Positions 1,687 through 46,257 of a DNA stretch of 52,060 nucleotides are shown here, piece by piece. Where the stretch lies: the NCBI GenBank assembly GCA_038874215.1, contig JAVZCV010000003.1, positions 1-52,060 on the forward strand. Direction: 5' to 3'. Each line of letters begins with the position of its first letter. The first letter of the stretch is position 1. The translations under genes were made by a program, and so were the position numbers. The notes below the pieces were generated by a model. That model saw only the letters and a program-made list of their open reading frames with translations. It did not search any database and was not told the origin of the DNA. The stretch comes from Candidatus Micrarchaeia archaeon. GTDB lineage: Archaea; Micrarchaeota; Micrarchaeia; Burarchaeales; JAVZCV01.

Positions 1687-2796
1687 GTGAATCAGAAAAG
1701 CGGCATGAGTCCTAAGAAAAAAATCCTCCTTGTGTCGCTGGCTTTTCTTTCATTTCTTCTATCATTTTTTAGAATTGCACGCTTTGGGTGCATTGACAAA
1801 GCGTTTTTGTTTGAATGCTGTGTGGATTTCTACTGCGACTATGCGAATGGCATATACAACGAAATAATAAAAGGAGGTATCGCCGCAGATTCGCTGATTG
1901 GCATAGGTCGCGTGTTCAGCACAATGTATGCCCCCTTTGCAGTAGGGCCTTTTCTTGTAGCCCTATTGAACATACTTGTAGGGGATATTGGAAAGAGTAC
2001 TATACTACTAAGCGTTCTCCCTACCGTCTTATCTTTTTACCTTCTCTACACCTTTCAGAAGGGCGAGAACAGCGAAACACAATTCTTTTCGCTAGCGATT
2101 TTCGCATCCCACTATCTTGTAGTATTTGCATTCGCTAATAGGGGAAGCGAAGCCCTCACAATGTGTATTTCACTTCTTTTTTTCTTGTCTTTGAAAAAGT
2201 CGCTTGATAGACGTCTCTATTTTATTCCAACCCTATTCCTGGGTGTTGTTGGGGTTCTGACAAGGATAAATTTTGCGCCGTTTTTAGTTCTCGCACCCAT
2301 GCTCCTGTTTACGCGCACAAATGGCGATCGGCGTTTATCCAACTGCATGCTCGGGGTTCTAGTAATAGTGATACCCATTATGGCATATTTCCTATTTATC
2401 CACGTTTTCTCGCTCTACCAAAATATGGCTGTGTGGAAAACATACTTATATGGAGCAGATAATGAGAAGTACAAAACGCCTTTGCATATCGTTTTATTTT
2501 TAGCAATCGGGTTTCAGCTTTTTCCTATCCTTATAGTGATCGGCATGAAGGAAACTGCAAGTGAGAGGCTTGTGTATGCCATTCCCCCTATACTTCTCAT
2601 CGTTATTTTGGCTCTTTTTGGTTTGCCTTTTACTAACAGGTATATAGCACCGTTCATACCCAGCTTGGTTATCGCTTCTACGAACGGAATAAGTAGAGTT
2701 CTCAAAATGTGTGGGGGCAGGGAGTTGTTAACCGCCTTGATATCGCTAAATTATGTGGTATTCTATATAGTAACTATCTTTAACATTGCCGCATAA
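1687..2796 (+). CDS. GT-C fold (ArnT/PMT, GT39-like) membrane glycosyltransferase
   Basis: About 10 TM segments, R.SE loop and late RYIAP motif. Start could be ATG 1705. Confidence 0.55.
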   Translation: MNQKSGMSPKKKILLVSLAFLSFLLSFFRIARFGCIDKAFLFECCVDFYCDYANGIYNEIIKGGIAADSLIGIGRVFSTMYAPFAVGPFLVALLNILVGDIGKSTILLSVLPTVLSFYLLYTFQKGENSETQFFSLAIFASHYLVVFAFANRGSEALTMCISLLFFLSLKKSLDRRLYFIPTLFLGVVGVLTRINFAPFLVLAPMLLFTRTNGDRRLSNCMLGVLVIVIPIMAYFLFIHVFSLYQNMAVWKTYLYGADNEKYKTPLHIVLFLAIGFQLFPILIVIGMKETASERLVYAIPPILLIVILALFGLPFTNRYIAPFIPSLVIASTNGISRVLKMCGGRELLTALISLNYVVFYIVTIFNIAA

Positions 2797-3538
2797 ACCG
2801 ACCCGAAATCCGCTCAAGCCTCTTCAACATGTATGCGATAGCTCTTCTCAGGTTTTTCTTGTTGTCAAATCGCACAGCCCCTGCGGCTGCTCCACTTGCT
2901 TTTAGTTTAGCGATTTCTGCCGTGAGCAAGGGTATTGCTCTTGTCACATTGTCAACTATAGTTATGCTTGCCTTTTGTGATGTGCGTGAGAGAGGGTTCA
3001 GATCAATCGCTATGACATTTTTGCCAGCTTTTCTAAGAGCCTCTGTCCTATCCCCATCTTCAACCGCTACAAGAACGGTATCTGCGAGGTATATCCCGCG
3101 CCTATCAACAAGCGCACGTGCAGAAGCAGGCGCCTTCATGCGAACTTTCTTGCCAGCACCAAGAATGCTAACGCCAAATTTCATGAAATGCCTCCTTATC
3201 GCGAGTTCGCGCTTTCTTTTTCTGTAAAAAAGGTTTACCTCAATCGGCGCATGGAGGACATGGGATAGCTTAACTATATCTTCTGCACATAAGGCTGCAA
3301 CATTCCCATTAACAGAAATCACTGGTTTTGATGAGGAAACGAGCATTCTCGCCGCGGCTTTTATTGCATTTCTTGCTGGCGGTATCGTCCTCTCGCCAAT
3401 CAAGTAATCAAACATCTCCCCACGCCCTTGGGCTATGAGCCCTTGCAAGGAGGTTATGCCAGCACGGACTCCTTTCTCAATCTTGTGCCTTTCAACAAGC
3501 GAACGGTATCTTGGGTGAGACTTCGGTATTTTTTCCAT
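2780..3538 (-). CDS. Archaeal phosphopantothenate synthetase (4-phosphopantoate--beta-alanine ligase)
   Basis: IPKSHPRYRSL, GRGEMFDYLIGE, SVNGN, EDGDRTEAL and IDLNPLSRT motifs; adjacent to pantoate kinase. Confidence 0.95.
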   Translation of the reverse strand: MEKIPKSHPRYRSLVERHKIEKGVRAGITSLQGLIAQGRGEMFDYLIGERTIPPARNAIKAAARMLVSSSKPVISVNGNVAALCAEDIVKLSHVLHAPIEVNLFYRKRKRELAIRRHFMKFGVSILGAGKKVRMKAPASARALVDRRGIYLADTVLVAVEDGDRTEALRKAGKNVIAIDLNPLSRTSQKASITIVDNVTRAIPLLTAEIAKLKASGAAAGAVRFDNKKNLRRAIAYMLKRLERISGRFMRQC

Positions 3539-3568
3539 AATTTTAAGATTAATCGCTAGATTTATTAT

Positions 3569-4447
3569 TTAGTCACTTTCAATATGTGCGCCAATTGGGG
3601 ATATTCTTGTGATTACGGTGTTTTTTGAGAATTTCATCATCTCTTTTGCCGTTGCGCTCGCATCTTTTCTGTTTTTCTCAACTGCGAAAACAGTCTCGCC
3701 TAACATAGCCATGCTTGCATTTTCAATTGCATCCATTAGCTTGCGTACTTTGCTTTTTTCGCGTGCGAGCCCTGTTTTGATAGCAAACTGGCGAGAAAGC
3801 TGAATGAAATTATCAAGCGTTTTCTCATTTTCAAATTCCCGTATGCATTCCAAACCAACAGCTGTTATCTTCCGCTTCCATGCCATGCTTCGTATAACTT
3901 CCCATGTGGGTATGGGGGAGAAGAATGAGCATACGATATGCGTGCTATTCGGAACACGAATTTTTTCAACCGAAGTGAATTCCCCCGGTTTTTTTCTGTA
4001 AGCAAGAGAGCCACATAGTTCTGCAGCAACAGTGCCGAGGCCCGTGCCGCATTCAATCTCGGCAGCCTGTGCAATCTCCGCGCATTCCTCTTTTTTCAGT
4101 CCTAAACATAGCAACTTGTTTAGCGAAAGAGCGAGTGAAAGCGCACCAGCACCGCTCATCCCACAACCATATCCGATAGGCATGCTCGCCCTATGCTCAA
4201 CAGCAAGGCCATGCTTCTTCCCAGAGATTTCAATAAAGCGCTTTATAACTGCGCGCGAAGTTTTTGCGAATGCTTTCTTCCCGTTTATGCTTATATCTAC
4301 TCCCCTGCCTCTGCTTTTAACCTCTGTTCTCATCCCTTTTTCAAGGCATATCCCTGCGCCTGCCGAGCCGTTTTTGAAGATTGCAAAAAAGCCCGTTATG
4401 TGTGAGGGTGAATAAGCAGAAGCAACACGCGTGCAATCTCTTTGCAT
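3569..4447 (-). CDS. Archaeal pantoate kinase (GHMP family)
   Basis: PSHITGFF, GSAGAG, PIGYGCGMSGA, GTGLG and SMAMLGETVF motifs. Confidence 0.9.
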   Translation of the reverse strand: MQRDCTRVASAYSPSHITGFFAIFKNGSAGAGICLEKGMRTEVKSRGRGVDISINGKKAFAKTSRAVIKRFIEISGKKHGLAVEHRASMPIGYGCGMSGAGALSLALSLNKLLCLGLKKEECAEIAQAAEIECGTGLGTVAAELCGSLAYRKKPGEFTSVEKIRVPNSTHIVCSFFSPIPTWEVIRSMAWKRKITAVGLECIREFENEKTLDNFIQLSRQFAIKTGLAREKSKVRKLMDAIENASMAMLGETVFAVEKNRKDASATAKEMMKFSKNTVITRISPIGAHIESD

Positions 4448-12380: not shown

Positions 12381-13274
12381 ATGATGCGGATAGGCTACCC
12401 ATGCATCAATCTTGGGGTTGGGTGCACTCCAAACTCAACATTCCGAAAGAAATCCTACTCAGAAGAGCGGCTTAAAAGTGCTGTCTCAAACAATTTAAAC
12501 TGCTTATCACGCATTTTAGGCTACAATAAGCGAAATAACATCTTATTCTTCCGAGTTAGTTCTGATATTGTTCCTTTTGCCTCCCACCCAATATGCAAGT
12601 TCAATTGGGCAAAGCATTTTCGTGAAGAGTTCCACAAAGTTGGAGAATATGCCCTTCAGAATGGAATGCGCTTGTCCATGCATCCCGACCAGTTTGTAGT
12701 TATCAATTCTCCAAATCCAGATGTGGTTGAAAGGAGCGTTAGGGAGCTTGAATACCACGTGAAAGTTCTGGATTTGATGGGGCTTGACGAATCAGCCAAA
12801 ATCCAGATTCATGTTGGAGGAGTCTATGGAAACAAGGACGAGTCAATTGAGCGCTTTGCTGAAAACTATAAAAAATTAAGATTGGGGGTTAAACGTAGGT
12901 TAGTCGTTGAAAATGATGAGAAACTTTTCAGCCTTCGCGATTGCCTTTTTCTGAATGAGAAAATAGGCATTCCTGTTGTTTTTGACAGCCTTCATCATGA
13001 ATGCCTGAATAATGGTGAAAGTAGGGTTGATGCTATCTCTTTGGCATCAGAAACATGGGGTGAAAAAGACGGCCAGCCTATCATAGATTATAGTAGCCAG
13101 AAGCGCGGTGGGCGCGTTGGAGCACATGCACCAACGATTAACCTTAAACACTTTCGGACCTTTGTTGAGGAGGTTGGAAAAAGGAATATTGATATAATGC
13201 TTGAAATAAAGGATAAGGAGAGAAGCGCTATGAAAGCGTTAAAGCTTTTGCAGTCGCTTAATATGAGAAGGTGA
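12381..13274 (+). CDS. uvsE: UV damage endonuclease (UVDE)
   Basis: RIGYPCIN, FRVSSDIVPFASHP, SMHPDQF, IHVGG, VENDE, FDSLHH and MLEIKDKE motifs. Confidence 0.95.
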   Translation: MMRIGYPCINLGVGCTPNSTFRKKSYSEERLKSAVSNNLNCLSRILGYNKRNNILFFRVSSDIVPFASHPICKFNWAKHFREEFHKVGEYALQNGMRLSMHPDQFVVINSPNPDVVERSVRELEYHVKVLDLMGLDESAKIQIHVGGVYGNKDESIERFAENYKKLRLGVKRRLVVENDEKLFSLRDCLFLNEKIGIPVVFDSLHHECLNNGESRVDAISLASETWGEKDGQPIIDYSSQKRGGRVGAHAPTINLKHFRTFVEEVGKRNIDIMLEIKDKERSAMKALKLLQSLNMRR

Positions 13275-13765
13275 TTGTGGATATGGGACAGGGAAGAAAG
13301 CTATCGTTGCTTGTTGGGGCAATAATCGTATGCCAGATGGCTGGGATAATTGGCTCTTTCTTCACCATCCCCGCAATTCCAACATGGTATGCTACTTTGA
13401 AAAAGCCGTTTTTCACTCCGCCAAACTGGGTTTTTACGCCAGTATGGATCTCGTTATTTACCTTAATGGGCATTTCCCTTTATATAATTCTTATTAAAGG
13501 CATCGAAAATCAGGAGGTTAGGTTAGCAGTTTTGGTGTTTGGGATTCAGCTAACCCTGAATGCCATATGGTCATTTCTGTTCTTCGGGCTTAAATCGCTC
13601 TTTCTCTCATTTCTCGGCATTAGCGCCCTATGGCTTGCCATTATAATTACGATAGCCCTCTTTTATAAGCTCTCAAAATCCGCCGCTCTTCTGCTAATCC
13701 CATACCTGCTTTGGGTTAGTTTTGCCGCTCTCCTCAATTTCGCTGTTTTCCTGCTTAACCCTTAA
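13271..13765 (+). CDS. tspO: TspO/MBR tryptophan-rich sensory protein
   Basis: WYATLKKPFFTPPNWVF..VW, LNAIWSFLFFG and LLIPYLLWVSFA motifs. Confidence 0.95.
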   Translation: MIVDMGQGRKLSLLVGAIIVCQMAGIIGSFFTIPAIPTWYATLKKPFFTPPNWVFTPVWISLFTLMGISLYIILIKGIENQEVRLAVLVFGIQLTLNAIWSFLFFGLKSLFLSFLGISALWLAIIITIALFYKLSKSAALLLIPYLLWVSFAALLNFAVFLLNP

Positions 13766-14318
13766 TTTTAAACCCGACGAATCTCTCCACGACTTTCCAA
13801 ATGAAATATGCAAGCACGCCGCCAGCGAGCGCTGTTGCAAACTGCATTACGCCCATCGCAGAAAGGAAAAGCGCTGGCACGAAGCCGAAGTTAAATAGAG
13901 CGAGAGCACTTGCAAACAGGAAGGAGGATTTTGCAAGCGCGCCGATAAAAAGAGAAACGGCGTAGTTTATTTTCTTTTCAATAAAAAGCGCCTTTATAGC
14001 AAGAATGAGTATGATGTTGCCAACCCAGATGAATGGAAGCATGAAGGCGAGAGCGGGTGTGAATGGGCCGAAGAGAACGCCACGCAAGAGGGCGCTAACG
14101 CTCGGAATCAGTGAAAGAAAAATAACCTGTCTCGCTCCTAGATTCAGGGCGGATATGACCAAGAAGGTATTTACGAGAGTGCCAACGTATACCTGTGGAT
14201 GGCCCATGATAAGCGGTATGCCGAAGGATAATGCAATTAAAAGGCAGAATTCAGCAAATTCAAATGCATACGAACTTCTGAATGCTCGCACATCAAGAGA
14301 GGCATAGAGCCACCTCAT
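13755..14318 (-). CDS. ECF S-component-like membrane protein, last gene of the hydrogenase operon
   Basis: About 6 TM segments with HPQ..VGTLVN, PFIWVGN, K..FLF and QFATAL.GG. Starts 9 nt after the hydA stop with a GAGGTGA RBS. Confidence 0.55.
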   Translation of the reverse strand: MRWLYASLDVRAFRSSYAFEFAEFCLLIALSFGIPLIMGHPQVYVGTLVNTFLVISALNLGARQVIFLSLIPSVSALLRGVLFGPFTPALAFMLPFIWVGNIILILAIKALFIEKKINYAVSLFIGALAKSSFLFASALALFNFGFVPALFLSAMGVMQFATALAGGVLAYFIWKVVERFVGFKIKG

Positions 14319-14327
14319 ATCATCACC

Positions 14328-16061
14328 TCATAAACCATAGCCTTTTTTCGGTGTATATGTTGTATGCAGAAGTTTCATAGACTTTTCCCCGAGCGGCTTT
14401 ACTAGAAACTCTTCATAGAGTTTTTTTATTGCAGGGTTTTCATGGGATTTGCGGATAGGCAAAGAGCGGTCAACCCGATATATCGCCTTTGCGCGCTCCT
14501 TTATAACTTTGAGGCGAAGTTCACGCGGTGGTATTGGCTGCCCTCCTCCTCCAATGCATCCGCCCCTGCACGCCATAACTTCCACGAAATCGTATGCCCA
14601 GTTTCCCGCACGCAGTTCTTCAAGAATCTTTCTTGCGCCCCCGAGGGTGTTCGCAATCGCCACCTTTACTTTCCTGCCATCAAAATCAACTGTGGCTTGG
14701 CGCACAAACTCAAAACCGCGCACCTGCTTGAAATCAAGCTGTTTTAGCTCCTTTCCTGTTGCTATCTCATATGCTGTTCTCAATGCAGCCTCGGTAACGC
14801 CACCCGTAGCTCCGAAAAGAGCCGCAGCGCCCGTTGATATTCCGAGAGGCTCATCAAACGGCTCTGGTTTCAATGAAGGAAGATGTATCCCCACTTCCAT
14901 CATCATGCGTGCAGCCTCTCGCGTTGTAAGAACAAAATCAACATCGCGGACTCCAGAAGCGCACATTTCGGGTCGGGCAGCCTCAAACTTTTTCGCAGTG
15001 CACGGCATTATTGAAACGAGAACTATGTCTTCTGGTTTTAGGCTGTTTTTCTCGGCATAATATGTTTTCGCTATTGCTCCGAACATCTGCATCGGGGATT
15101 TGCATGTACTTAGATATGAAAGAAGGTCAGGATAGAAATGCTCTATGAAATCTATCCATGCAGGACAGCATGAGCTTGAGAGGAGCGGCAATCCCTTTTC
15201 AACCTTCTCTGCGAGCTCGTGCGCCTCTTCCATTATCGTCAAATCGGCCCCAAAGTTTGTATCAAAGACCTTATGGAAGCCAAGCCGCCTTAGTGCAGCG
15301 ACTGTTTTGCCAGTAACAATCCTGCCTGGTGGCAACCCAAACATTTCACCTATACTCACGCGAACAGAGGGCGCAATTTGGCATATAACGTGCTTTCCAG
15401 AATGAAGTGCATTCCAGACTTCGTTTATTGATTCTCGCTCAGAGATAGCGCCTGTTGGGCAGACGATTGTGCACTGACCGCATGAGACGCATGGAGTTTC
15501 TGAAATCGGCTTATCGTATGCGGTCGTCACTACGGAGTTTAGCCCGCGTTTTGCGAAGCTATAAACGCCGACAGTTTGAATATCGCGGCATACTCGCACG
15601 CACCTGCCACATAGTATGCACTTGTCAAGGTCTCGCTCTATCGCTGGGCTTGATTTGTCTATAAAGTGCCTTTTGTCTCGCATTTCGTACTTGTAGTCCC
15701 TCATTCCATACTCATAAAGAAGGCTCTGGAACTCGCACCTTCCATGCTTTTCGCACGTCTTGCAGTCTGCGGGATGGGAGCAGAGAAGTAATTGAAGAAT
15801 GAACTTCCTTGCATCTATCACCCTTTTTGAGCGGGTATTCACAACCATTCCATCCTGCGCTGGTAGCGTGCATGAAGCAGGAAGGCCCCGCATTCCTTCC
15901 ACTTCAACTATGCATAGCCTACACTCGCTCTGCGGTGGCAAGCCTTCATAATAGCAAAGAGTCGGTATGTATATCCCTGCCTGCTTTGCTGCTTCAAGAA
16001 CCGTAGTACCTTTATTTACGGTTATCTTTTTACCATCTATTGTTAGTGATATTTTGGCCAT
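14328..16061 (-). CDS. hydA: [FeFe]-hydrogenase catalytic subunit (group A, HydA/HndD architecture)
   Basis: H-cluster motifs L1 SSCCPAW, L2 MPCTAKKFE and L3 EVMACRGGCIGGGGQP. N-terminal [2Fe-2S], His-ligated [4Fe-4S] (HPADCKTC) and 2x[4Fe-4S]. C-terminal small-subunit domain RKSHENP. Confidence 0.97.
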   Translation of the reverse strand: MAKISLTIDGKKITVNKGTTVLEAAKQAGIYIPTLCYYEGLPPQSECRLCIVEVEGMRGLPASCTLPAQDGMVVNTRSKRVIDARKFILQLLLCSHPADCKTCEKHGRCEFQSLLYEYGMRDYKYEMRDKRHFIDKSSPAIERDLDKCILCGRCVRVCRDIQTVGVYSFAKRGLNSVVTTAYDKPISETPCVSCGQCTIVCPTGAISERESINEVWNALHSGKHVICQIAPSVRVSIGEMFGLPPGRIVTGKTVAALRRLGFHKVFDTNFGADLTIMEEAHELAEKVEKGLPLLSSSCCPAWIDFIEHFYPDLLSYLSTCKSPMQMFGAIAKTYYAEKNSLKPEDIVLVSIMPCTAKKFEAARPEMCASGVRDVDFVLTTREAARMMMEVGIHLPSLKPEPFDEPLGISTGAAALFGATGGVTEAALRTAYEIATGKELKQLDFKQVRGFEFVRQATVDFDGRKVKVAIANTLGGARKILEELRAGNWAYDFVEVMACRGGCIGGGGQPIPPRELRLKVIKERAKAIYRVDRSLPIRKSHENPAIKKLYEEFLVKPLGEKSMKLLHTTYTPKKGYGL

Positions 16062-16062
16062 G

Positions 16063-17850
16063 TCAAGCCCTACCCATCCTGCATACGCCCACAGGGCATT
16101 TTTTCTCCTTTATGTGAATCAAGTATTCATCCTTGAAATATTGTAAGGTAGTAAGCACGGGGTTTGGTGCGGTTTGACCAAGCCCGCAAAGGGATGTGTC
16201 CTTTATCATTCTTCCCATTCTTTCAAGCGCTTCTATATCTTCAACTTTTCCCATTCCCTCAGTTATTCTCGTAAGTATCTCAAGCATCCTCGCCGTTCCC
16301 TCCCTGCAAGGAGTGCACTGGCCACACGATTCGCTCTGCGTGAAAGATAGGAAGAATCGTGCAACATCAACCATGCACGTCCTGTCATCCATAACGACTA
16401 TTCCGCCAGAACCCATTATTGAACCCGCCTGTTGGAGGGATTCGTAGTCAAGAGGCAGGTCAAGGCATGAAGCAGGAAGGCAACCGCCCGAAGGCCCGCC
16501 AGTTTGCACCGCTTTGAAGCTCTTCCCATCGGGTATCCCTCCTCCTACTGTGAATATAAGGTCGCGCAGTTTTATGCCTATGGGCACTTCAAATGCGCCA
16601 GTGTTGTTAACCTTCCCCGTGAGGCAGAAGACTTTCGTTCCCTTGCTCTTTTCAGAGCCAACCTGTGCAAACCAGTCGGCGCCCTTTGCGAGTATGGTAG
16701 CAACGTGTGCGAGAGTCTCAACGTTGTTTATCACTGTTGGCTTCCCCCATAGTCCTTTTTCAGCAGGGAAAGGCGGGCGTGCGCGTGGCATGGCTCGCTT
16801 GCCTTCAATTGAGGCTATGAGTGCTGTTTCTTCTCCACAAACAAATGCGCCAGCCCCGAGCCTAACGCTCACGTCAAAATCAAACCCAGATCCCAATATG
16901 CTTTTGCCAAGAAAGCCCTTTTTTCGCGCCTGCTCAACCGCTTTTTTTATCCTCTCTGCGGCAAGCGGTTTTTCTGCACGGACATAAACAAACCCTTGGT
17001 TTGCACCTATTGCATACGCTGCGATTATGAGGCCTTCAAGGACTTTGTGGGGATCGCCTTCAAGCGTTGCCCTGTTCATGAATGCGCCAGGGTCGCCTTC
17101 GTCTGCGTTGCATATCATGAACTTTTCATCGCTTTTTATTCTCCTGCAAAATTCCCACTTCATTGCTGTGGAAAATCCCGAACCGCCTCTTCCTCTTAGC
17201 CCTGCCTTTTTTACTTCTGCGATGACTTCCTCAGGAGATAGCAGAAGGGCTTTTGCAAGCCCTAAATATCCGCCTCGCGAGATATAGTGGTCTATTGACT
17301 CAGGGTCTATCACGCCGCAGTTATCAAAAACGCCTCTCCGCTGAATGGCGTAGAATGGGAGCGATGAGAGCAGAGGGACTTTATCGCCATCTGCCCATGC
17401 ACATTCGCCTCTTCTTGCGAAGCATTTTTCAACGAGCACCCTTTTTTCCAATGCAGACGAAACAAGGGCAGGAACATCTGAGACATCAACATGAGAGTAG
17501 ATTATGCCTTCAACGTCGGGTGCGCGGATTTCTACGAGCGGCTCGGCAAAGCAGAAGCCCATGCATCCTGTACTAAAAACTTCAGCATCAATACTGCGCT
17601 TTTTTATTTCATCAGCGAGCGCGGTTTTTACCTCTCCCGCACCCGAACTGAGCCCGCATGTGCCCGTGCCAACATAAAAAACTAGTTTTTTGGGATGCAG
17701 AAGGTCGGCAATGTTGCTTTTGTCTGCCTTTTTGCAGTGATAATCTTCGTGGCAGATAACACCATTTGGGGAGGTTTCTATGAAGCCCGTGCAGGGTTTT
17801 TTACCAACGCATTTGGGGCATTTTTTTATTCGTGAGTTTTTCCCAACCAT
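16063..17850 (-). CDS. hydB: NuoF-like diaphorase subunit of a trimeric [FeFe]-hydrogenase
   Basis: GLRGRGGSGF, NADEGDPGAFM, GAGAFVCGEETAL, NNVET, GGPSGG and ESCGQCTPCREG motifs. Confidence 0.95.
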   Translation of the reverse strand: MVGKNSRIKKCPKCVGKKPCTGFIETSPNGVICHEDYHCKKADKSNIADLLHPKKLVFYVGTGTCGLSSGAGEVKTALADEIKKRSIDAEVFSTGCMGFCFAEPLVEIRAPDVEGIIYSHVDVSDVPALVSSALEKRVLVEKCFARRGECAWADGDKVPLLSSLPFYAIQRRGVFDNCGVIDPESIDHYISRGGYLGLAKALLLSPEEVIAEVKKAGLRGRGGSGFSTAMKWEFCRRIKSDEKFMICNADEGDPGAFMNRATLEGDPHKVLEGLIIAAYAIGANQGFVYVRAEKPLAAERIKKAVEQARKKGFLGKSILGSGFDFDVSVRLGAGAFVCGEETALIASIEGKRAMPRARPPFPAEKGLWGKPTVINNVETLAHVATILAKGADWFAQVGSEKSKGTKVFCLTGKVNNTGAFEVPIGIKLRDLIFTVGGGIPDGKSFKAVQTGGPSGGCLPASCLDLPLDYESLQQAGSIMGSGGIVVMDDRTCMVDVARFFLSFTQSESCGQCTPCREGTARMLEILTRITEGMGKVEDIEALERMGRMIKDTSLCGLGQTAPNPVLTTLQYFKDEYLIHIKEKKCPVGVCRMGRA

Positions 17851-17854
17851 AAAA

Positions 17855-18340
17855 TCAACGTTCGTACTTCGCTATTATCTCGGCTACTTTTGATGGCTCA
17901 ACCCGTGAATAGATATCGTTGTTAATTCTAACTATAGGTCCCAAAGCGCATGCGCCAAAGCACCGCACGGGAAGGAGCGTAAAGCGTTTGTCGCTAGTTG
18001 TGTTGCCTGCTTTTATGCCAAGCACGTTCTCAAAAGCCTCAAGGACTGCCTTGGCTCCTTTCACGTGGCATGCGGTACCAGTGCAGACCTGAATTATGTT
18101 CTCGCCAGGCGGCTCTAACCTGAATTGCAGGTAGAAGGTAGCAACGCCATATATCTCGGAAAGCGGTATTTTCAATTTTTCAGAAACAAGTGCAACATCC
18201 TCTTTTCGCAGATAGCCCATCTCTTCCTGAAGCTCTTGCAGAATAGGGATGAGGGAGCCCCTTTCAGAGGCATGCCTGTCTATTATCCTCTTTATTTTTG
18301 CAGAGACATCAATCTCAACACGCTGGTCGCTGGCGCCCAT
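17855..18340 (-). CDS. hydC: NuoE-like [2Fe-2S] subunit
   Basis: LIPILQ, YGVATFY, VCTGTACHVKGA and CFGACALGP motifs. Confidence 0.95.
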   Translation of the reverse strand: MGASDQRVEIDVSAKIKRIIDRHASERGSLIPILQELQEEMGYLRKEDVALVSEKLKIPLSEIYGVATFYLQFRLEPPGENIIQVCTGTACHVKGAKAVLEAFENVLGIKAGNTTSDKRFTLLPVRCFGACALGPIVRINNDIYSRVEPSKVAEIIAKYER

Positions 18341-18357: not shown

Positions 18358-18377
18358 ATTTATTAAAAGTTTTTCGC
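18358..18377 (-). promoter_or_regulatory. BRE/TATA promoter of the hydrogenase operon (likely leaderless)
   Basis: Minus strand GCGAAAAACTTTTAATAAA, with the TATA element about 21-28 nt upstream of the hydC ATG. Confidence 0.6.
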
Positions 18378-26683: not shown

Positions 26684-27499
26684 TCATCCGATTCCCAGAA
26701 TTTCCGCAATCCCATATATCCTGCCAGGTTTTCCGTTTTTCGCAAGCCAAAGTGCGCTCTGGATAGCACCCGATGCAAACTCGCTCCTGCTGTACATAAG
26801 AGACTCTATTATAAGTCTCCCATGCTTGCCTACGACACGCAGCTCGTGCTGCCCAGGCGTTCCGCCAAGCCTCAAAACGCACATGTCAAGCTCGCCTTTC
26901 TCCTTCACCCTCATCTCCTCTTTTCTGTATATCACTTTGTCACAAGCCTTCGCCCCAATTACCATGTTCGCCATCGTCTTTGCGGTTCCTGAAGGCGCAT
27001 CCTTCTTACCAGTATGGTGCTCTTCTATTATGCCGAAATCATATCCAAGAGGTCCGAGTATCTCAGCTGCGCGCTTTGCAAGGTATATCTGGGTATTAAC
27101 GAGCGGTGAGAAATTTGAAGCGATTACAGCGCACCCCTTGCTCCTTTCAATCGCTTTTCTCACAGTGGAAAGCTGCGCCTCATTCATGCCCGTCGTTCCA
27201 ATAACTATGTTTTTGCCTGCCGCAGCTATCACGGGCACATTGCTTGCTTCTGCTTCCGGGGTAGTGAAGCTTATAGTGCAGTCCGCATCTGCGATTGCCT
27301 TGCTTAGTTCAGATGGGGGATAAAGTGGTGCATTCGTGCCAGCAACCTTTGCGCCTTTTTCAAAAGGCTCTGCCGTCACGCCAGCCACTATCTCCACTCT
27401 TCCTTTATAATTAGAGTTTATCTCCGCTGCCACTGCGCTCCCCATCCTCCCCGTCGCCCCCAGAATGCACACCCTGAGAATTTTCTCACCACCAGCCAT
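26684..27499 (-). CDS. dapB: 4-hydroxy-tetrahydrodipicolinate reductase
   Basis: GATGRMG, VIGTTG, ASNFS and EEHHTGKKDAPSGTA motifs. Confidence 0.95.
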   Translation of the reverse strand: MAGGEKILRVCILGATGRMGSAVAAEINSNYKGRVEIVAGVTAEPFEKGAKVAGTNAPLYPPSELSKAIADADCTISFTTPEAEASNVPVIAAAGKNIVIGTTGMNEAQLSTVRKAIERSKGCAVIASNFSPLVNTQIYLAKRAAEILGPLGYDFGIIEEHHTGKKDAPSGTAKTMANMVIGAKACDKVIYRKEEMRVKEKGELDMCVLRLGGTPGQHELRVVGKHGRLIIESLMYSRSEFASGAIQSALWLAKNGKPGRIYGIAEILGIG

Positions 27500-27510
27500 T
27501 TTACCACCCC

Positions 27511-28374
27511 CTATTCGTATTCAAATTCGCCTTCATACACGAATTCCGCATTCCCTATCAGATATGCGCATGAGATTTCATCTTTTTCAGCAGAAAGCAT
27601 GATTTCAAGCTCCCCGCCAGGAAGACGTGCCGTAACATGTTTTCCTGTCCTTTTTGTGATATAGCCAGCAGAAACGCTTGCCACTGCTCCTGTTCCGCAT
27701 GCGAGCGTTGCGCCTGCACCTCTCTCCCATGTCCGCATGATTATGCGTTTTGGTGAAACGACTTCAACGAAATGGACGTTTGTCCTGTTTGGGAACAGCG
27801 AGCTATTCTCAATCAGCGGGCCGATTTTCTCCAAGTCAATTTTCTCAACATCTTCAACAAAAATGACGGCATGGGGGTTGCCCGTGCTAACAGCGGTAAG
27901 CGTGATTTCGCCAACACCCTCAATTTTCACCTTTTCCTCTATGCACCTATCTTTTGCAAATTTCATTGGAATTTTTAAGCACTCAAAAATTGGCTTTCCC
28001 ATCATCACCTTAACCCTGTCCCCAACAATTTCGGGCTCAACTATTCCCGCAAGAGTCTCAACGCGCATTTTTTTTGCTACGCTATCCCTTTCAAGGTAGC
28101 GTGCAAAGCACCTAATTCCGTTTCCGCACATCTCCGCCTCGCTTCCATCCGCATTGAATATGCGCATGCGCGCATCGTTCTCGCTCTTTATCGCTTTGCA
28201 TACGAAGATTAAGCCGTCTGCGCCTATTGAGAATCGCCTCGTGCAGAGCATTTTTGCAAGTTTAGGCTTCAGCTCTTCTGAAAAAATCTCGCCTTTTCGT
28301 TCATCAATTATGATAAAATCGTTTCCCGTACCATGCATTTTTGTGAAGTGCACCTTCACGGAACCACCAGTCAA
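27511..28374 (-). CDS. dapF: Diaminopimelate epimerase
   Basis: FTKMHGTGNDF, NADGSEAEMCGNGIRC, GNPH and ERGAGATLACGTG motifs. Confidence 0.97.
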   Translation of the reverse strand: MTGGSVKVHFTKMHGTGNDFIIIDERKGEIFSEELKPKLAKMLCTRRFSIGADGLIFVCKAIKSENDARMRIFNADGSEAEMCGNGIRCFARYLERDSVAKKMRVETLAGIVEPEIVGDRVKVMMGKPIFECLKIPMKFAKDRCIEEKVKIEGVGEITLTAVSTGNPHAVIFVEDVEKIDLEKIGPLIENSSLFPNRTNVHFVEVVSPKRIIMRTWERGAGATLACGTGAVASVSAGYITKRTGKHVTARLPGGELEIMLSAEKDEISCAYLIGNAEFVYEGEFEYE

Positions 28375-29531
28375 ACGGCTTTTTCCATTCTCTCCAAAGC
28401 TTCCTTTATTCTCTCAATCGGTTGCGTTAGCGCAAACCTCACAAATCCTTCACCATACTCACCGAATCCTATGCCTGGCGTTGCGACAACGCCAACATCA
28501 AGCAGCTTGTTGACAAAATCCACAGAACTGCCTCTCACACGAAGCCATATGTAGAAAGTTGCCTTGGGCTTTTTGCACTTCAACCCAATTTTGTTAAGGC
28601 CTCTGACAAACACGTCCCTCCTTCTCTCGTACTCCAGCATTATCTCATTTACGAAGGGTGGTCTTTCCTTACCTTTGTAAGAATTCAGCGCTGCGATCGC
28701 AGCCCTCTGCACATATACGGAAGGACCTGAGTCTATCTGTGTTTTCACTTTCCTAAGCCCTTCAACGATATCGGCATTTCCAACCGCAAAACCTATTCTA
28801 TCGCCCGTCATAGAGAAAGTCTTTGAGCAGCTGTGGAATTCTATGCAATCCATTCCAAATTCAAGCGCAGAAGGTGCAATGTAGTCATCAAATGTGAATT
28901 CAGAGTAGGCATTATCATAGCATAGTATTATTCCCTTCTCTTCAGCAAAATGAACGGCTTCTTTGAGAAATTCCCTTGTTGCAACCGCACCGGTTGGATT
29001 ATTCGGGTAGTTTAGGTACATCATCTTCGCATTTTTCGCATCAAGCGAGTCAAGCACAGGCAGGAAATCGTTCTCTTCAAGAAGCGGGAACTTGACGGGA
29101 ACGCCGTCGCAGAGGGTTGTTGCCCCCTGTGCATAAACAGGATATGCTGGATCTGGGACGAGAACTACGTCTTTTGGGTTTACGAACGCCCGCGCTATGT
29201 TTGCGAGCCCTTCCTTTGAGCCTATGAGGGCTATAACTTCTTTTTTCGGGTCAAGAGAAACGCCGAAGCGCTTCTTGTACCACTCTGCAACCGCTTCCCT
29301 GAACTCCTCCTCCCCCTGCGAGAGCGAATAGTTGTGTGTATTTGGGGCGAATGCTTCCTCTGAAAGTTTTTTTCTTATCGGCTCGGGCGTTGGAATGTCT
29401 GGGTCTCCGATGCCGAGAGAGATTATATCGACTCCTGCTTTCTTTTTTTCCGCTATTTTTTTCTCTATATCTGCGAAAAGGTATGGTGGGAGTTTTTTCA
29501 GTCTTTCACTATACTCTATCGGAATTCCCAT
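28371..29531 (-). CDS. dapL: LL-diaminopimelate aminotransferase
   Basis: LPPYLFA, LGIGDPD, LIGSKEG, NYPNNPTG and SKTFSMTGDRIG motifs; located in the dap operon. Start moved to ATG 29531. Confidence 0.88.
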   Translation of the reverse strand: MGIPIEYSERLKKLPPYLFADIEKKIAEKKKAGVDIISLGIGDPDIPTPEPIRKKLSEEAFAPNTHNYSLSQGEEEFREAVAEWYKKRFGVSLDPKKEVIALIGSKEGLANIARAFVNPKDVVLVPDPAYPVYAQGATTLCDGVPVKFPLLEENDFLPVLDSLDAKNAKMMYLNYPNNPTGAVATREFLKEAVHFAEEKGIILCYDNAYSEFTFDDYIAPSALEFGMDCIEFHSCSKTFSMTGDRIGFAVGNADIVEGLRKVKTQIDSGPSVYVQRAAIAALNSYKGKERPPFVNEIMLEYERRRDVFVRGLNKIGLKCKKPKATFYIWLRVRGSSVDFVNKLLDVGVVATPGIGFGEYGEGFVRFALTQPIERIKEALERMEKAV

Positions 29532-29532
29532 T

Positions 29533-30795
29533 TCATCTCCTCTTTTTGCCTTTTTTAAGCCAGCTGGCAACCTTCTGGTTCTTCATGAGCTGCCCAAAGG
29601 TTTCACGCTCCCTTACTATCTCGTATTTTTCTCCGTTCACAAGAACTTCGCATGCACGGGGGCGCATGTTGAAGTTTGAGCTCATCGCGAATCCGTATGC
29701 GCCAGCATTCATGATTGCGAGCAAATCGCCTTCCTCAATTTTGGGGAGCTTCCTGTCTCTTGCGAGCAAATCGCCCGACTCGCATATAGGACCCGCAATG
29801 CTGTATGTTTCTTGTGGAGGTGCTTTCTCTTTTCCTACAACAACAACCTCGTGATATGCCCCATACATAGTCGGCCTTATTAAAGTATTAAAACCGGCAT
29901 CAACGCCAACGAATTTTTTGAAAGGCGTTTCTTTCAAAGTATTCACGCGCGTTAAGAGTATGCATGCGTCGCATACTATATACCTGCCGGGCTCGGTGTA
30001 TAGGAAAGGTTCTCCCAATCCGCTCTCTTCGCAGCGAGCTCGTATTATTTCTGTTATCGCACGAGCGAACCCTTCAACATCAAGCGGCTTATCATCTGGT
30101 TTGTATGGCACCCCGAGACCGCCACCTATGTCTATGAATGAGAAATCTATGCCGACATTTTTTGCTACGCTTGCCGCAATGCTCATGAGCTTCTCAACCG
30201 CCCTTAGAAAAGGCGAATAATCAAGTATGCCGGAGCCTATGTGCATGTGAATTCCGAACTCGCGGACGCCAGCCTGCTTTGCACGAGTGTATGCACGCAC
30301 CGCATCGCTTTCCCATATGCCGAATTTTGATTCTTTTCCACCAGTTATTGTGTGGTCATGATGGCCAGCGCCAACCTCGGGGTTTATGCGGAATGAGATT
30401 TTTTCAGGTACTTTTATTGCGAGCAGGCGCTCAAGCTGGGATAGGGAATCTACGTTTATCGTTATCCCTTTATCAAGCAGAAAACGAATTTCATCGTTTC
30501 TCACCGATGTGCCCGTGAACATTATCCTGTCTGGCGAGAAGCCCGCCAGCAGAGCAGCCTCAACCTCAAAAGGAGAGACAGCATCTATGCATGCACCCTC
30601 GCTTTCCAGTATTCTGAGCACGGATATGTTTCCGTTCGCCTTCATTGCGTAAAGCAAACGGAATTTTGGGTAGTTTTTCTCAAACGCATTCTTCACGCAC
30701 CTGAAATTCTCCCGTATCCTCTGTTCATCAATTACGTATATGGGTGTGCCGAACTCTTCAGCAAGTTTTTCGCAGTCAATGTTTCCAATCCTCAT
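29533..30795 (-). CDS. lysA: Diaminopimelate decarboxylase
   Basis: YAMKAN, SKFG, HMHIGS, DIGGG, EPGRY, GPICESGD and GAYGFAMSSNFN motifs. Confidence 0.97.
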   Translation of the reverse strand: MRIGNIDCEKLAEEFGTPIYVIDEQRIRENFRCVKNAFEKNYPKFRLLYAMKANGNISVLRILESEGACIDAVSPFEVEAALLAGFSPDRIMFTGTSVRNDEIRFLLDKGITINVDSLSQLERLLAIKVPEKISFRINPEVGAGHHDHTITGGKESKFGIWESDAVRAYTRAKQAGVREFGIHMHIGSGILDYSPFLRAVEKLMSIAASVAKNVGIDFSFIDIGGGLGVPYKPDDKPLDVEGFARAITEIIRARCEESGLGEPFLYTEPGRYIVCDACILLTRVNTLKETPFKKFVGVDAGFNTLIRPTMYGAYHEVVVVGKEKAPPQETYSIAGPICESGDLLARDRKLPKIEEGDLLAIMNAGAYGFAMSSNFNMRPRACEVLVNGEKYEIVRERETFGQLMKNQKVASWLKKGKKRR

Positions 30796-30821
30796 GCTAA
30801 CTCACCAGTATGGCTGATTTG

Positions 30822-30837
30822 AAAATAAAAAATAAAA
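30822..30837 (-). terminator. Possible intra-operon oligo-T terminator between dapA and lysA
   Basis: Minus strand TTTTATTTTTTATTTT lies just after the dapA stop. Confidence 0.3.
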
Positions 30838-30844
30838 GTCTGCT

Positions 30845-31738
30845 CTATTTTATGAGCCCGTATTCGCTGATTACGCTCCTTATTTTCTCCCTGTTCTCTT
30901 TGCTCGTCTCGCACATTGGAAGGCGCATTCCGCTTCCGCACAACCCCATCATTTTTGCCGCTTCTTTTACGGGTATGGGGTTGGTATCTATGAAGAGAAC
31001 CTCAAAAAGCTTGGACAGCCTTGCGTTTTCCGCCTCCATCGCAGGCCAATTCCCATCTAAGCCGAGCTTTATGAAATCAACCATCATTCTCGGCGCTATG
31101 TTTGATGCTACAGATATGACGCCCAAACACCCATAGTTGCGCATGAGCGTGTATGTCTTGTTGTCGTCCCCGGACAGGATGATGAACTTATCGCCGCAGA
31201 GTTGCCTCGTCTTCTTCCATACCTCTTCATTGCCCGTCGCTTCCTTTACCCCAATTATGTTGGAATATTCGTTCATCAGTCTTGCGATTGTTTCTGGCTC
31301 TATGAGGCGCGATGTCCGGCCGGGTATGTTATACAGCACATGGGGTATATCAACTGCCTCGGCAATAGCGCCGAAATGCCTGAAAAGCCCCTCTTGGCTT
31401 GGCTTGTTATAGTAGGGACATACTTGAAGCGTTGCGGTTGCGCCCGCATCTGCAGCGTGCTTGCTCATCGCTATTGCCTCCCACGTGCAGTTTGAGCCCG
31501 TGCCTGCTATCACCTGCCCTTTCGCCCTTTCAATAACCTCTTCAATCACTTTGTTGTGCTCTTCGTGTGATAGGGTGGGGGATTCGCCAGTAGTTCCGCA
31601 TGGCACGATGCCAGCAACTCCGCCTTCATTTTGAAAATCAACGAGACGCGCGAGCGCATCCCAGTCTATGCGGGACCGCACTCCTGTGCCCTTAAAGGGC
31701 GTTATTATTGCAGTATAAACCCCTTTCAGCTCAACCAT
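30845..31738 (-). CDS. dapA: 4-hydroxy-tetrahydrodipicolinate synthase
   Basis: CGTTGESPTL, GTGSN, PYYNKP, YNIPGRT, GVKEA, SGDD and NPIPVK motifs; GAGGTGG RBS. Confidence 0.97.
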   Translation of the reverse strand: MVELKGVYTAIITPFKGTGVRSRIDWDALARLVDFQNEGGVAGIVPCGTTGESPTLSHEEHNKVIEEVIERAKGQVIAGTGSNCTWEAIAMSKHAADAGATATLQVCPYYNKPSQEGLFRHFGAIAEAVDIPHVLYNIPGRTSRLIEPETIARLMNEYSNIIGVKEATGNEEVWKKTRQLCGDKFIILSGDDNKTYTLMRNYGCLGVISVASNIAPRMMVDFIKLGLDGNWPAMEAENARLSKLFEVLFIDTNPIPVKEAAKMMGLCGSGMRLPMCETSKENREKIRSVISEYGLIK

Positions 31739-31806
31739 GCAACCACCTCACATTTAATTTTTCTAATTTATTTCCAAAAGTTCGTAAATAGTATGGTATA
31801 GATAAA

Positions 31807-31824
31807 TTAATATAACTTTTTCGC
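31807..31824 (-). promoter_or_regulatory. BRE/TATA promoter of the dap operon
   Basis: Minus strand GCGAAAAAGTTATATTAA, with the same BRE octamer as the hydrogenase promoter. Confidence 0.6.
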
Positions 31825-31832
31825 AAATTTAG

Positions 31833-31847
31833 GTACGAAAAACGAAA
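31833..31847. promoter_or_regulatory. Putative Lrp/LysM operator GTACG-AAAAA-CGAAA upstream of the dapA BRE
   Basis: 12-bp identity to 22213-22224. A second degenerate site, GTTCGTAAATAGTAT, lies at 31780-31794. Confidence 0.6.
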
Positions 31848-31959
31848 AGAATTCGCCAAAGTAGTTGAGGTGGAATGTAAAATGTCTAATGGCATAGCGT
31901 ATGGGTGCGTTTAGGTTTTGCAAAACATTTTTTTATTTGTTATAGCCTTTTTTTGTAGG

Positions 31960-32829
31960 ATGTTGGCAAAAAGAATAATACCCTGCCTTGACTGCGACCT
32001 GAGCGTGAAAGAGGGCCGTGTCGTGAAGGGTGTTGAATTCAAGCAGATTCGGTATGCTGGAGTACCATGGGAACTCGCCGAAAGATACTATGAAGAAGGC
32101 GCCGATGAAATAGTGTTTTTGGATATAACGGCAAGCCATGAAAGAAGAGAAACGATGGTTGAGGTAGTTAAAAAAACCTCTGAGAAGGTTTTTGTCCCGA
32201 TAACGGTTGGCGGGGGGATAAAAAGCGTTGAGGATGCACGCAGGATATTTGAAGTCGGCGGGGACAAAGTATCCGTTAATACTTCGGCAATTAAAAGACC
32301 ATCTCTAATAACTGAGATTGCCGAACACTTTGGCTCTCAAGCCTGCGTTGTTGCGATAGACTGCAAAAGAAGGCGGGCAGAAGAAAAGGAGGAGAAGAAT
32401 ACTAATTTGGTAAGGGAGTTCGGAGCATACGTGGAAACAGCAGGGGAGAGGCATCCAATAAAAACGCCAGAAGGGGAATTCTGGTTTGAATGCTCTGTAT
32501 ATGGGGGGCGGACATTTACGGGCGTTGATGCGATTGCGTGGGCAAAGAAGGCGCAGGAATTGGGGGCGGGCGAAATTTTGCTCACATCTATGGACAGGGA
32601 CGGGACAAACAAGGGATATGATATTGAGCTCACGCGCGCTGTCGCAGAAAGCGTGACTATACCCGTGATAGCATCGGGGGGTGCGGGCACTGTGGAGCAC
32701 ATACGCCTCGCGCTTACTGAGGGGAAGGCGGATGCCGCTCTCCTCGCAGGCCAGCTGCACTTCGGAAGGCTTAAAATAGGTGAGATAAAAGAGTATCTCG
32801 CAAAAAACGGCGTGGTAGTGCGGTGTTAG
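31960..32829 (+). CDS. hisF: Imidazole glycerol phosphate synthase cyclase subunit
   Basis: [39 protein letters not shown] and PVIASGGAG motifs. Start moved to ATG 31960. Confidence 0.97.
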
Positions 32830-32830
32830 A

Positions 32831-33478
32831 ATGCGGATGAGTGAGGAAGAGGCGAAAAAAGTTGCGGATTCGCTCAATTTTGAGAAGGGGAATGGCTTTG
32901 TTGTCGCAGTAGCGCAGTCGGAAAGAAGGGAGGTGCTGATGGTTGCGTTCCAGAATAAGGAGGCAGTAATCAAAACCCTCACAACAGGCAAGATGTACTA
33001 CTATAGCAGGGAGAGGAATAGATTATGGAGAAAAGGTGAGGAAAGCGGCAATGAGCAAACACTAATTCGTTATGCCGTTGACTGCGACCGCGATGCAATG
33101 CTCTATACTGTAAGGCAAAAAGGGGTGGCTTGCCACACTGGGAGGAGAACATGCTTTTCAGAGACTGGCGAAAATGAAGAAACTAAAATTTCGCTTGAAC
33201 GCCTTTATGAAATAATCCGAGACAGGAAGGATAACCCGAAAGAGGGCTCATACACGAATAAACTGCTTGAGGACAAAGAGATGATTATTAAAAAATTAGT
33301 AGAGGAGAGCGGAGAGCTTGTGGAGGCGGCAGAAAAGGGGAAGAAGGAAGATATAGTTTGGGAAACGTGCGACCTTCTATACCACCTTTTTGTTCTTCTC
33401 GTGCACGAAGGGATAAGCATTGATGAACTTGAAGTGGAATTAGGAAGAAGGCATGCAGAAAAGGAGAAAAGAAGGTGA
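32831..33478 (+). CDS. hisIE: Bifunctional PR-AMP cyclohydrolase / PR-ATP pyrophosphatase
   Basis: LWRKGEESGN, DCDRD, ACHTGRRTCF, then SYTNKL, KLVEESGE and E..DLLYH motifs. Confidence 0.95.
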   Translation: MRMSEEEAKKVADSLNFEKGNGFVVAVAQSERREVLMVAFQNKEAVIKTLTTGKMYYYSRERNRLWRKGEESGNEQTLIRYAVDCDRDAMLYTVRQKGVACHTGRRTCFSETGENEETKISLERLYEIIRDRKDNPKEGSYTNKLLEDKEMIIKKLVEESGELVEAAEKGKKEDIVWETCDLLYHLFVLLVHEGISIDELEVELGRRHAEKEKRR

Positions 33479-41610: not shown

Positions 41611-41618
41611 TTTCGCAC

Positions 41619-43094: not shown

Positions 43095-43161
43095 AATAAA
43101 ACCACGCTCAACCCATATACCCCTGCATAGATTAATAATTTTATCGTGCATCTCCGAATTC

Positions 43162-43395
43162 ATGGAACCTGAAAACTCGCGCGAGCGCGTGGAGAAAGAC
43201 ATAAGGGAATTTGAAGATGCCGTTTCGCAAATTTCTCCGAAGGGGAAGACGGAAACAGGCCTGGTAGAACTCGCAAAGCGATACCGTGATGATGCAGAGT
43301 TTTATCTTAAAAAAGGAGACTTGCTAACTGCCTTTGGCTGCATAAACTATGCATACGGAATAATTGATGCAATAAAAGTTCTCAGTAAAGGATAG
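43162..43395 (+). CDS. DUF357 family protein
   Basis: LAKRY..DA.FYL.KGD..TAFGCINYAYG.IDA pattern; start ATG 43162. Confidence 0.85.
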   Translation: MEPENSRERVEKDIREFEDAVSQISPKGKTETGLVELAKRYRDDAEFYLKKGDLLTAFGCINYAYGIIDAIKVLSKG

Positions 43396-43466
43396 ATTTA
43401 TATAATTAAAACGCGTAGTATCTTTGCTATTTAATAGGTAAATGTGAAGATTATGGGTGTTTTTTA

Positions 43467-46169: not shown

Positions 46170-46257
46170 AGAAGGAATATTACATCCAGAGTATATATGT
46201 TTATTTTGGCTGGCCGCCCCCTTCAATTTATAAAAATTCCCTTTCATATTTTGCTTG

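Follow-up and report, generated by a model that had tools for sequence, protein, structure and literature searches.

The 52,060-nt contig JAVZCV010000003.1 (assembly GCA_038874215.1, Candidatus Micrarchaeia archaeon), analysed here at full length as the window, carries a four-gene unit on its minus strand: hydC, hydB and hydA, which encode a trimeric [FeFe]-hydrogenase, and hyd6TM, which encodes a HymD-like membrane protein. We propose that this unit may combine an A3-type hydrogenase, serving H2 disposal without canonical electron bifurcation, with a membrane importer of the [2Fe] cofactor or a late precursor, which would replace the maturases HydE, HydF and HydG (HydEFG). Taken whole, the proposal is given slightly less than an even chance. 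New here are the absence of the C-terminal 2[4Fe-4S] (B3/B4) domain of HydB across the sampled Micrarchaeota and the lineage-level evidence for hyd6TM and hydEFG as alternatives.

Archaeal A3 operons unaccompanied by maturases have been published before, and the first-pass annotation of the sequence, which had treated this one as a surprise, overstated the case. Greening 2024 (PMC11216029) counted 44 A3 enzymes among archaea, spread over six or more DPANN phyla, with A3 as the most widespread archaeal type. Full maturases were found in 5/130 archaeal genomes, and an alternative pathway was argued for; the assays in that paper covered groups A1, B and E, not A3. Its tables list hydC-hydB-hydA-hyd6TM in Micrarchaeota, with hyd6TM as an uncharacterised neighbour in 32 copies. 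The archaeal A3 enzymes given there (Micrarchaeota Supp_MAG36, Altarchaeota, Woesearchaeales) share with the window the gene set and order, an M3 HydA and the lack of maturases. Unlike that treatment, in which A3 is bifurcating and hyd6TM uncharacterised, our analysis yielded a HydB without B3/B4 and a hyd6TM with a predicted S-component fold that alternates with hydEFG. Woesearchaeota A3 enzymes have also been called bifurcating (Huang 2021, PMC8421398). Position, size and common motifs recognised by eye were the grounds for equating the window gene with hyd6TM. Rows of the Greening tables may share genomes with the present sample and were not counted as independent.

The window is contig C3 of genome G000 (1.13 Mb, 38 contigs, completeness 91%, contamination 1.1%); other G numbers denote sampled genomes, C contigs, P proteins and L loci. 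Presence and absence were counted in a phylum sample of 401 Micrarchaeota genomes. The order hydC-hydB-hydA with three H-cluster motifs, as first annotated, was borne out by intact minus-strand open reading frames (ORFs), profile scores and conserved cysteines. hydC (17855..18340, 161 aa) encodes a NuoE-like [2Fe-2S] subunit with Cys 86/91/127/131 (PF01257, 174 bits). After a gap of 4 nt follows hydB (16063..17850, 595 aa), encoding the NuoF-like flavin mononucleotide (FMN)/NAD(P)H subunit. hydA (14328..16061, 577 aa) starts 1 nt after the hydB stop and encodes the M3-type catalytic subunit, and hyd6TM (13755..14318, 187 aa), the fourth gene, lies 9 nt after the hydA stop. The cofactor sites of HydA run from a [2Fe-2S] through a His-ligated [4Fe-4S] and a 2[4Fe-4S] site to the H-domain with five H-cluster cysteines. 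HydA scored over the cut-offs of NF040763 (836 bits vs 765) and TIGR02512 (500 vs 406), and C298, C299, C354, C498, C502 and K358 were present. Its L1, L2 and L3 motifs and the five cysteines predict a group A catalytic subunit, and the adjacent nuoF-like and nuoE-like genes place it in A3 by the genetic definition. The best match in the PDB was 8A6T (T. kivui, 635 bits), and the HydA of T. kivui and A. woodii were the closest solved relatives. The H-cluster ligands were invariant in 36 aligned HydA, as were E279, E282, C298 and S318, which we take to be proton-path residues.

HydB contains the domains PF01512, PF10531 and PF10589. Its B1 cluster ligands are C509/512/515/555, and C457, C492, H579, C585 and C590 align with residues of bifurcating HydB that we take to form the Zn/B2 site. 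The chain ends 5 residues after C590 and gave no Fer4 match, so the B3/B4 domain is absent, as it is in four orthologues; alignments to bifurcating beta subunits stop at residue 536-539 of 597-602-aa chains. HydB matches were found in 22/401 phylum genomes. We examined 22 HydB ORFs of relatives (21 genomes plus G028; one ORF is cut by a contig end), and the ferredoxin motif occurred in 0/22. Because none of these has a B3/B4 domain, canonical bifurcation is unlikely. Four of the 22 are long like the window protein, with A-F-M, GGPSG and the Zn/B2 ligands. The other 18 are short NuoF-only proteins (about 370-440 aa) without GGPSG, 17 of them with T/S-F-K, and fit the non-bifurcating pattern of Losey 2020 (PMC7311640). 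These short HydB stand at L012-L014, L123-L130, L133, L135, L136, L140, L150, L155 and L011; published work classes loci of this sort as bifurcating A3. The five long Micrarchaeota HydB formed one clade in an unrooted FastTree tree (support 95).

Truncation of this kind is not unique to the phylum, since tail-less HydB also occurred among 150 distant representatives. Among 81 HydB-like ORFs in 80 bacterial loci, 70 had two ferredoxin motifs, 5 another long tail, 4 were tail-less and 2 were cut. In the Greening tables, HydB C-termini outside Micrarchaeota were judged from the domain columns in 9 rows. One bacterial locus, L079 (G411), has a hyd6TM homologue and then two tandem hydC-hydB-hydA sets; one of its HydB is short and of the non-bifurcating type, the other long and without B3/B4, and no HydF was found in the genome.

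The comparison with characterised enzymes gave a mixed picture. The Bfu family is defined by a core that includes the C-terminal 4Fe-4S ferredoxin domain of BfuB (B3/B4; IPR017896; Schut 2022, PMC9304861). The window proteins show the Nuo51 FMN, SLBB, NADH 4Fe-4S and BfuC [2Fe-2S] domains and the B2/Zn ligands, and lack B3/B4; on this domain content the enzyme is not filed as a member. For BfuB and BfuC we presumed a correspondence between InterPro and Pfam domains. The FMN/NAD signatures, B1, Zn/B2 and C1 are common to the window enzyme and BfuABC (T. kivui 8A6T, A. woodii 7Q4V, T. maritima 7P5H, A. mobile 7T2R). Unlike BfuABC, the window HydB has no C-terminal 2[4Fe-4S] and carries an extra N-terminal Cys/His motif. 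S. wolfei Hyd1ABC and S. aciditrophicus HydAB, as described by Losey 2020, likewise have fewer beta-subunit Fe-S clusters, no ferredoxin domain and a predicted NAD(P)H-to-H2 reaction; in contrast to them, the window HydB is without their residue signatures and keeps a thioredoxin-like domain and the Zn/B2 site. The N-terminal thioredoxin-like cluster site (B5) has three Cys (C65/C96/C100), the first canonical Cys being absent, as in NfnB of 9N5U; T. sibiricus NfnB holds Zn at its N-terminal thioredoxin-like site (PMC12018979).

Loss of the C-terminal clusters was costly in two studied enzymes. Deletion of the HydB C-terminus gave low bifurcation (Katsyv 2023, PMC10021017), and a B4 mutant showed 0.76 vs 17.2 U/mg (Xiao 2025, PMC12018979). 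Judged from its sequence, the window HydABC thus probably works without canonical electron bifurcation. The residue signatures pull in the opposite direction. The best PDB match of HydB was 7T2R (702 bits), and HydB keeps the bifurcating-type A256/M258, a Phe at the FMN site and GGPSG at 451-455. A256 and M258 stand at the equivalents of TmHydB 232/234 (offset fitted on GGPSG) and do not follow the T/S + K/S/A pattern of Losey. The Tyr-for-Phe criterion (TmHydB 367) maps uncleanly; the window protein has Phe at each candidate position (336, 361 and 394). A Phe/Tyr difference in RPP-x-P (Phe in the window, Tyr in four orthologues) was considered as this second criterion and rejected, as it does not map to that site.

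The trimer could still bifurcate or confurcate if a free 2[4Fe-4S] ferredoxin docked at the place of B3/B4, or if the N-terminal Cys/His motif held a substitute cluster, and either arrangement would be compatible with any role of hyd6TM. The conservation of A256/M258, the FMN-site Phe, GGPSG and the Zn/B2 ligands in 5/5 long-type HydB speaks for this, and so does the host: G000 has pyruvate:ferredoxin oxidoreductase (PFOR)-like genes (read from translations) and small ferredoxins (C2:43283-43456 and C16:24731-25018), and no other hydrogenase was found in it, so that reduced ferredoxin needs a sink. The two cited studies, in which B3/B4 loss crippled bifurcation, speak against it. The motif (17734..17820, minus strand; residues 11-39, C-x2-C-x5-C-x12-CH-x4-C) is a candidate metal site. 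It is kept in G001 and G009, two genomes of the same order as G000, and a related motif occurs in P0053, P0082, P0091 and HydB rows of Greening Table S2. It is not present in G166 and G287, residues 1-44 were modelled at a predicted local distance difference test (pLDDT) score <50, and a word-based search with residues 1-110 matched only HydB itself. As a B3/B4 substitute the motif is weak, given that G166 and G287 are without both and P0053 has both. We regard continued bifurcation as unlikely.

In an enzyme without canonical bifurcation, HydB would oxidise NAD(P)H at FMN, and the electrons would pass via B1 and the HydA clusters to the H-cluster; H2 formation driven by NAD(P)H would work only at low H2. 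PFOR-reduced ferredoxin might, more doubtfully, feed HydA directly or via free ferredoxin. The earlier suggestion of a fermentative H2 sink remains plausible in a genome with PFOR-like genes and without a NiFe hydrogenase. G000 also has an archaeal type II GAPDH; no complex I-type subunit and no aldehyde or glyceraldehyde-3-phosphate ferredoxin oxidoreductase (AFOR/GAPOR) was found in it. Judged by their HydB, the sampled Micrarchaeota enzymes appear to be mislabelled as 'electron-bifurcating', and the window HydB offers a natural test of B3/B4 indispensability. If our reading is true, the window lineage is a natural B3/B4 deletion of a bifurcating core.

The first-pass annotation had seen no hydE, hydF or hydG in the window, and this held for the whole genome. 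No HydE or HydG match was found in G000 (91% complete), with both maturase-bearing control genomes scoring over the cut-offs; HydF gave GTPase-domain-level scores only (<=42 bits vs a cut-off of 326). hyd6TM, in turn, closely followed the catalytic subunit. It occurred in 75/401 phylum genomes and PF02906 in 80/401, with both in 74, that is, in 74/80 genomes with PF02906 vs 1/321 without. The lone exception, G267, has hydB/hydC at a contig edge. Because hyd6TM accompanies every HydA architecture seen, monomeric and trimeric alike, its role most likely concerns the H-domain. It lay within 6 kb of hydA in 53/74 genomes, far apart on one contig in 4 and on other contigs in 17. In metagenomes, a scan for hyd6TM found just 2 loci, each directly after a close hydA, and P0342 had no plasmid match. 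G307 (C61 and C2) has two hyd6TM matches, which could be a duplicate or binning overlap.

Maturases and intact hyd6TM largely excluded each other in the sample. The HydF/HydG profile search covered 80 genomes (79 HydA-bearing relatives of G000 plus G267). Four genomes gave HydF: G107 and G274, plus G325 and G356 at scores slightly short of the cut-off. HydG occurred in the same four as well as in G009. A HydE search, which did not include G356, confirmed that gene in G107, G274 and G325. Intact hyd6TM was present in 73/76 HydA genomes without HydF vs 0/4 with HydF and HydG. In two genera the maturase cassette occupies the place of hyd6TM, and in a third the gene is interrupted. In G107 and G274 (genus g59), where a profile search gave no hyd6TM, a hydG-hydE-hydF cassette has its end next to the CxxCxxCC gene; in the congeners G085, G100, G234 and G243, that gene is followed by hyd6TM. 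This site is unlinked from hydA, lying 601 kb away in G100. In G325, hydE-F-G are divergent from hydA and are followed by only the last 30 codons of hyd6TM, where the congener G255 has the whole gene; in G356, hyd6TM is split by about 320 bp. The in-place swaps could be insertions or reciprocal losses from an ancestor with both systems, and either would imply redundancy. The Greening tables agree in part: 4/5 full-maturase genomes are without an adjacent hyd6TM, and Supp_MAG29 misses it where a congener has it. On this evidence, hyd6TM probably stands in functionally for the maturases.

For the way in which it might do so, we turned to the predicted fold. The AlphaFold2 model of hyd6TM (pLDDT 93.9) was compared with 48,161 chains, and the top 15 matches were all S-components from transporters of the energy-coupling factor (ECF) type. 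The best was RibU 3P5N (Z 14.4, root mean square deviation 3.0, 155 aligned), BtuM 8OVV reached Z 11.6, and the first other protein Z 7.1. The top five Foldseek matches were S-components as well, none at E<=0.001, and the language-model (Atlas) neighbours belonged to HymD and ECF S component clusters. In Clostridium swellfunianum, a homologue bears the annotation 'ECF transporter S component'; PF12822 was matched by 5/32 aligned homologues, and the window protein had no Pfam match. Across these 32 homologues, from archaea to Bacillota, 11 positions were invariant. Six of them are polar (Q42, N50, N101, K130, Q159, T162), stand in or next to helices and may line a pocket. hyd6TM is without Cys and without a soluble domain. 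It is thus predicted to adopt the six-helix ECF S-component fold, although it is only 7-18% identical to the solved S-components and is tied to [FeFe]-hydrogenase, not to a vitamin pathway. HymD has been proposed as a hydrogenase membrane anchor or accessory subunit. In our literature search, which included few subscription papers, no published statement of an S-component role for hyd6TM/HymD was found. In Greening Table S2, ecfT-ecfA2 flank the Lokiarchaeia A3 loci in 4/5 rows and the B loci in 2/10, and a Lokiarchaeia membrane ORF with ecfA2 and ecfT beside A3 and B hydrogenases is possibly a full ECF version of the hyd6TM function.

The reading that we favor is that apo-HydA would receive its [4Fe-4S] from general Fe-S assembly, and that hyd6TM would capture a small organometallic unit from neighbours or the host and move it across the membrane without an ECF module, completing HydA. 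Solitary S-components such as BioY and BtuM transport without the module (PMC11109136). Import is plausible because a [2Fe] mimic supplied in the medium can mature HydA where the cells lack maturases; such a mimic enters Synechocystis, possibly through transporters as the authors suggest (PMC6243476). The idea that hyd6TM acts by importing a [2Fe]-type unit falls a little below an even chance. The fuller statement, in which hyd6TM/HymD is a solitary S-component that acquires, from other microbes, either the finished [2Fe] subcluster or a product of HydE/HydG, and the Micrarchaeota 'A3' enzymes are non-bifurcating, is more tentative still.

Several observations count against this proposal. The unit was read from genes, so its activity, binding and expression are predicted only. 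Matches between all-helical folds at Z near 13-14 need care, and the S-component fold also serves sensor domains (PMC11109136). Since no EcfT (PF02361) was found in G000 (91% complete; found in 11/14 control genomes), hyd6TM would have to be solitary. At high concentration, as entry of the mimic into Synechocystis also shows, a dedicated importer is not an absolute requirement. The Fisher p of 2e-5 for the exclusion overstates it, the four maturase genomes being three lineages. Three incomplete HydA genomes (G022, G220, G238) have neither system, and G009 has a HydG-like gene together with intact hyd6TM. In Greening Tables S2/S3, GCA_013330595.1 has HydE, F and G and an adjacent hyd6TM, and 16 group E rows show no adjacent hyd6TM. 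Sumerlaeota, the phylum of G411, gave a weaker pattern: 18 of 46 genomes had a group A HydA, 4 with HydF and no homologue of hyd6TM, 4 with a homologue beside hydC-hydB and no HydF, and 10 with neither. The exclusion there (0/4 vs 4/14) agrees in direction and is not significant (p 0.52), and 10/14 HydF-less HydA genomes have no homologue. Because these ten have neither hyd6TM nor HydF, other cofactor routes must exist. Two other bacterial HydF-less HydA genomes (G407, G410) were also without hyd6TM.

The HydG-scoring gene of G009 lies at a contig start (L167:1-1257, G009:C88) beside a ZIP-like transporter gene and feoB. No HydF was found in G009; its hydE and hydF could be situated past the end of the contig. 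Greening Table S3 includes HydE/HydG pairs in Micrarchaeota without a hydrogenase. ZIP-family metal transporters, Fur and feoAB often adjoin hydrogenase or maturase genes (L132, L166, L167; Greening Table S2).

The same exclusion and swaps would be explained if hyd6TM were a membrane maturation factor or scaffold that builds or holds [2Fe] from iron, CO, CN and dithiol, or imports one building block. Greening 2024 argues for an alternative pathway, and natural extracellular [2Fe] units are undocumented in the literature covered. However, hyd6TM has neither Cys nor a soluble domain, its predicted fold is that of small-molecule binders, and G000 yielded no radical SAM enzyme resembling HydE or HydG. 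We consider such a factor improbable, at roughly one chance in a handful. Another role, that of a hydrogenase anchor or accessory subunit unrelated to the cofactor and lost beside maturases by chance or insertion damage, would suit its usual position near hydA, its name as a hydrogenase subunit in Dehalococcoides annotation and its coexistence with maturases in GCA_013330595.1. An anchor would still be needed beside maturases, yet hyd6TM is absent or broken in 4/4 such genomes, and the swap in genus g59 took place at a site unlinked from hydA; this role seems distinctly improbable.

It is also conceivable that the proteins are never matured in vivo and that the complex acts only as a diaphorase or ferredoxin:NAD(P) oxidoreductase. 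No known maturation genes were found in G000, and the consulted parts of Greening 2024 report in vivo activity for no DPANN enzyme. The invariance of the H-cluster ligands and of the four presumed proton-path residues speaks against this, and some congeners have full maturases for the same kind of HydA. We give it very little weight.

If import by hyd6TM is true, the H-cluster is a shared vitamin-like cofactor, most DPANN hydrogenase owners are cofactor auxotrophs, and the importer is lost from lineages with hydEFG, in two genera at the same place on the chromosome. The cofactor source of maturase-less [FeFe]-hydrogenases is an open question in Greening 2024 (125/130 archaeal genomes without the full set). 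With hyd6TM, one gene (187 residues) in alternation with hydEFG, this question can be put to the test in E. coli, for which a whole-cell maturation assay exists, and the gene could also improve semi-synthetic hydrogenase production.

The operon is almost certainly a real, native archaeal hydrogenase. G001 and G009 have the four genes in the same order (orthologous operons 72-74%, all four genes 61-74% identity) in different flanks, the contig carries archaeal-type CoA and GlyRS genes, and the codon scores of the operon fall in the 42nd-66th percentile of host genes (hyd6TM 21st) with host-like GC content at third codon positions (GC3). The check on read coverage proposed at first pass favored the assembly: a near-identical strain in one public DNA run (X1), which may come from the same site, gave a single contig over 12268-18131 that runs from the left flank across almost the entire operon, at depth 7.6 vs 9.6 and 8.8 in the flanks; no RNA data set containing the sequence was listed. 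A mis-assembled or mis-binned bacterial insert, suggested by nearest non-archaeal homologues that are bacterial, is largely refuted by this gene order, codon usage, strain contig and gene content. An assembly error at the HydB end or in L1 was ruled out by the orthologues and by the lack of a listed change there in X1. The X1 strain differs most around the tspO start.

The bacterial origin suggested for the operon stood as an affinity: the best named non-archaeal HydA matches were from Atribacterota and Bacillota (55-59% identity). In the quick unrooted HydA tree, which contained no named A3 references, the window protein fell in a 10-row clade (SH-aLRT 99) with G001, G009, G166 and a Micrarchaeota-named protein, separate from other Micrarchaeota HydA. 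Acquisition from bacteria would rest on Greening 2024 and these nearest matches, and no donor is claimed.

The L1 motif had been singled out as carrying Ser for Thr and one extra residue. The extra residue was an artefact of aligning on proline: the loop is one residue shorter, not longer, with 18 residues from the conserved EE to the first Cys vs 19 in most of the 36 aligned HydA, and the shortening is common to the whole HydA clade of the window protein. The Ser is present and not special, as it also occurs in G030 and G265, and the same-clade member P0155 retains Thr. L1 was rejected as a special feature and taken as ordinary variation among HydA homologues. Most of the nearest bacterial HydA (P0161-P0271) and 7Q4V_A have C-S-P in L1; the Micrarchaeota enzymes retain both Cys (C-C-P).

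The annotated archaeal promoter was upheld as a site, with its function unproven. A sequence like the B recognition element and TATA box (BRE/TATA; 18359..18376, minus strand) stands about 26 nt ahead of the hydC ATG and is consistent with an archaeal promoter, from which the mRNA would be leaderless or near-leaderless. The pattern, defined after seeing the site, occurred at 17/322 divergent gene heads vs 11 of up to 5000 coding windows. A scan for sigma-70 promoters and terminators was at chance level.

Downstream, uvdE and tspO (12381-13765) converge on the operon, and tspO overlaps the hyd6TM 3' end by 11 nt. In G009 (L009:9291-11543), the operon is followed by ORFs resembling Fur, peroxiredoxin, superoxide dismutase and a ferritin-like protein (from translations). 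Elsewhere, the window encodes an archaeal-type phosphopantothenate synthetase and a GHMP kinase that is probably a pantoate kinase (2780-4447). The stretches 26684-33478 and 41041-48161 hold genes for lysine (diaminopimelate aminotransferase route), histidine, anthranilate synthase, EPSP synthase and methanogen-type homocysteine synthesis, a broad biosynthetic range for a 1.1-Mb DPANN genome. A 923-aa ORF at 48885-51656, with a beta-helix and Cys-rich repeats, likely encodes a surface protein.

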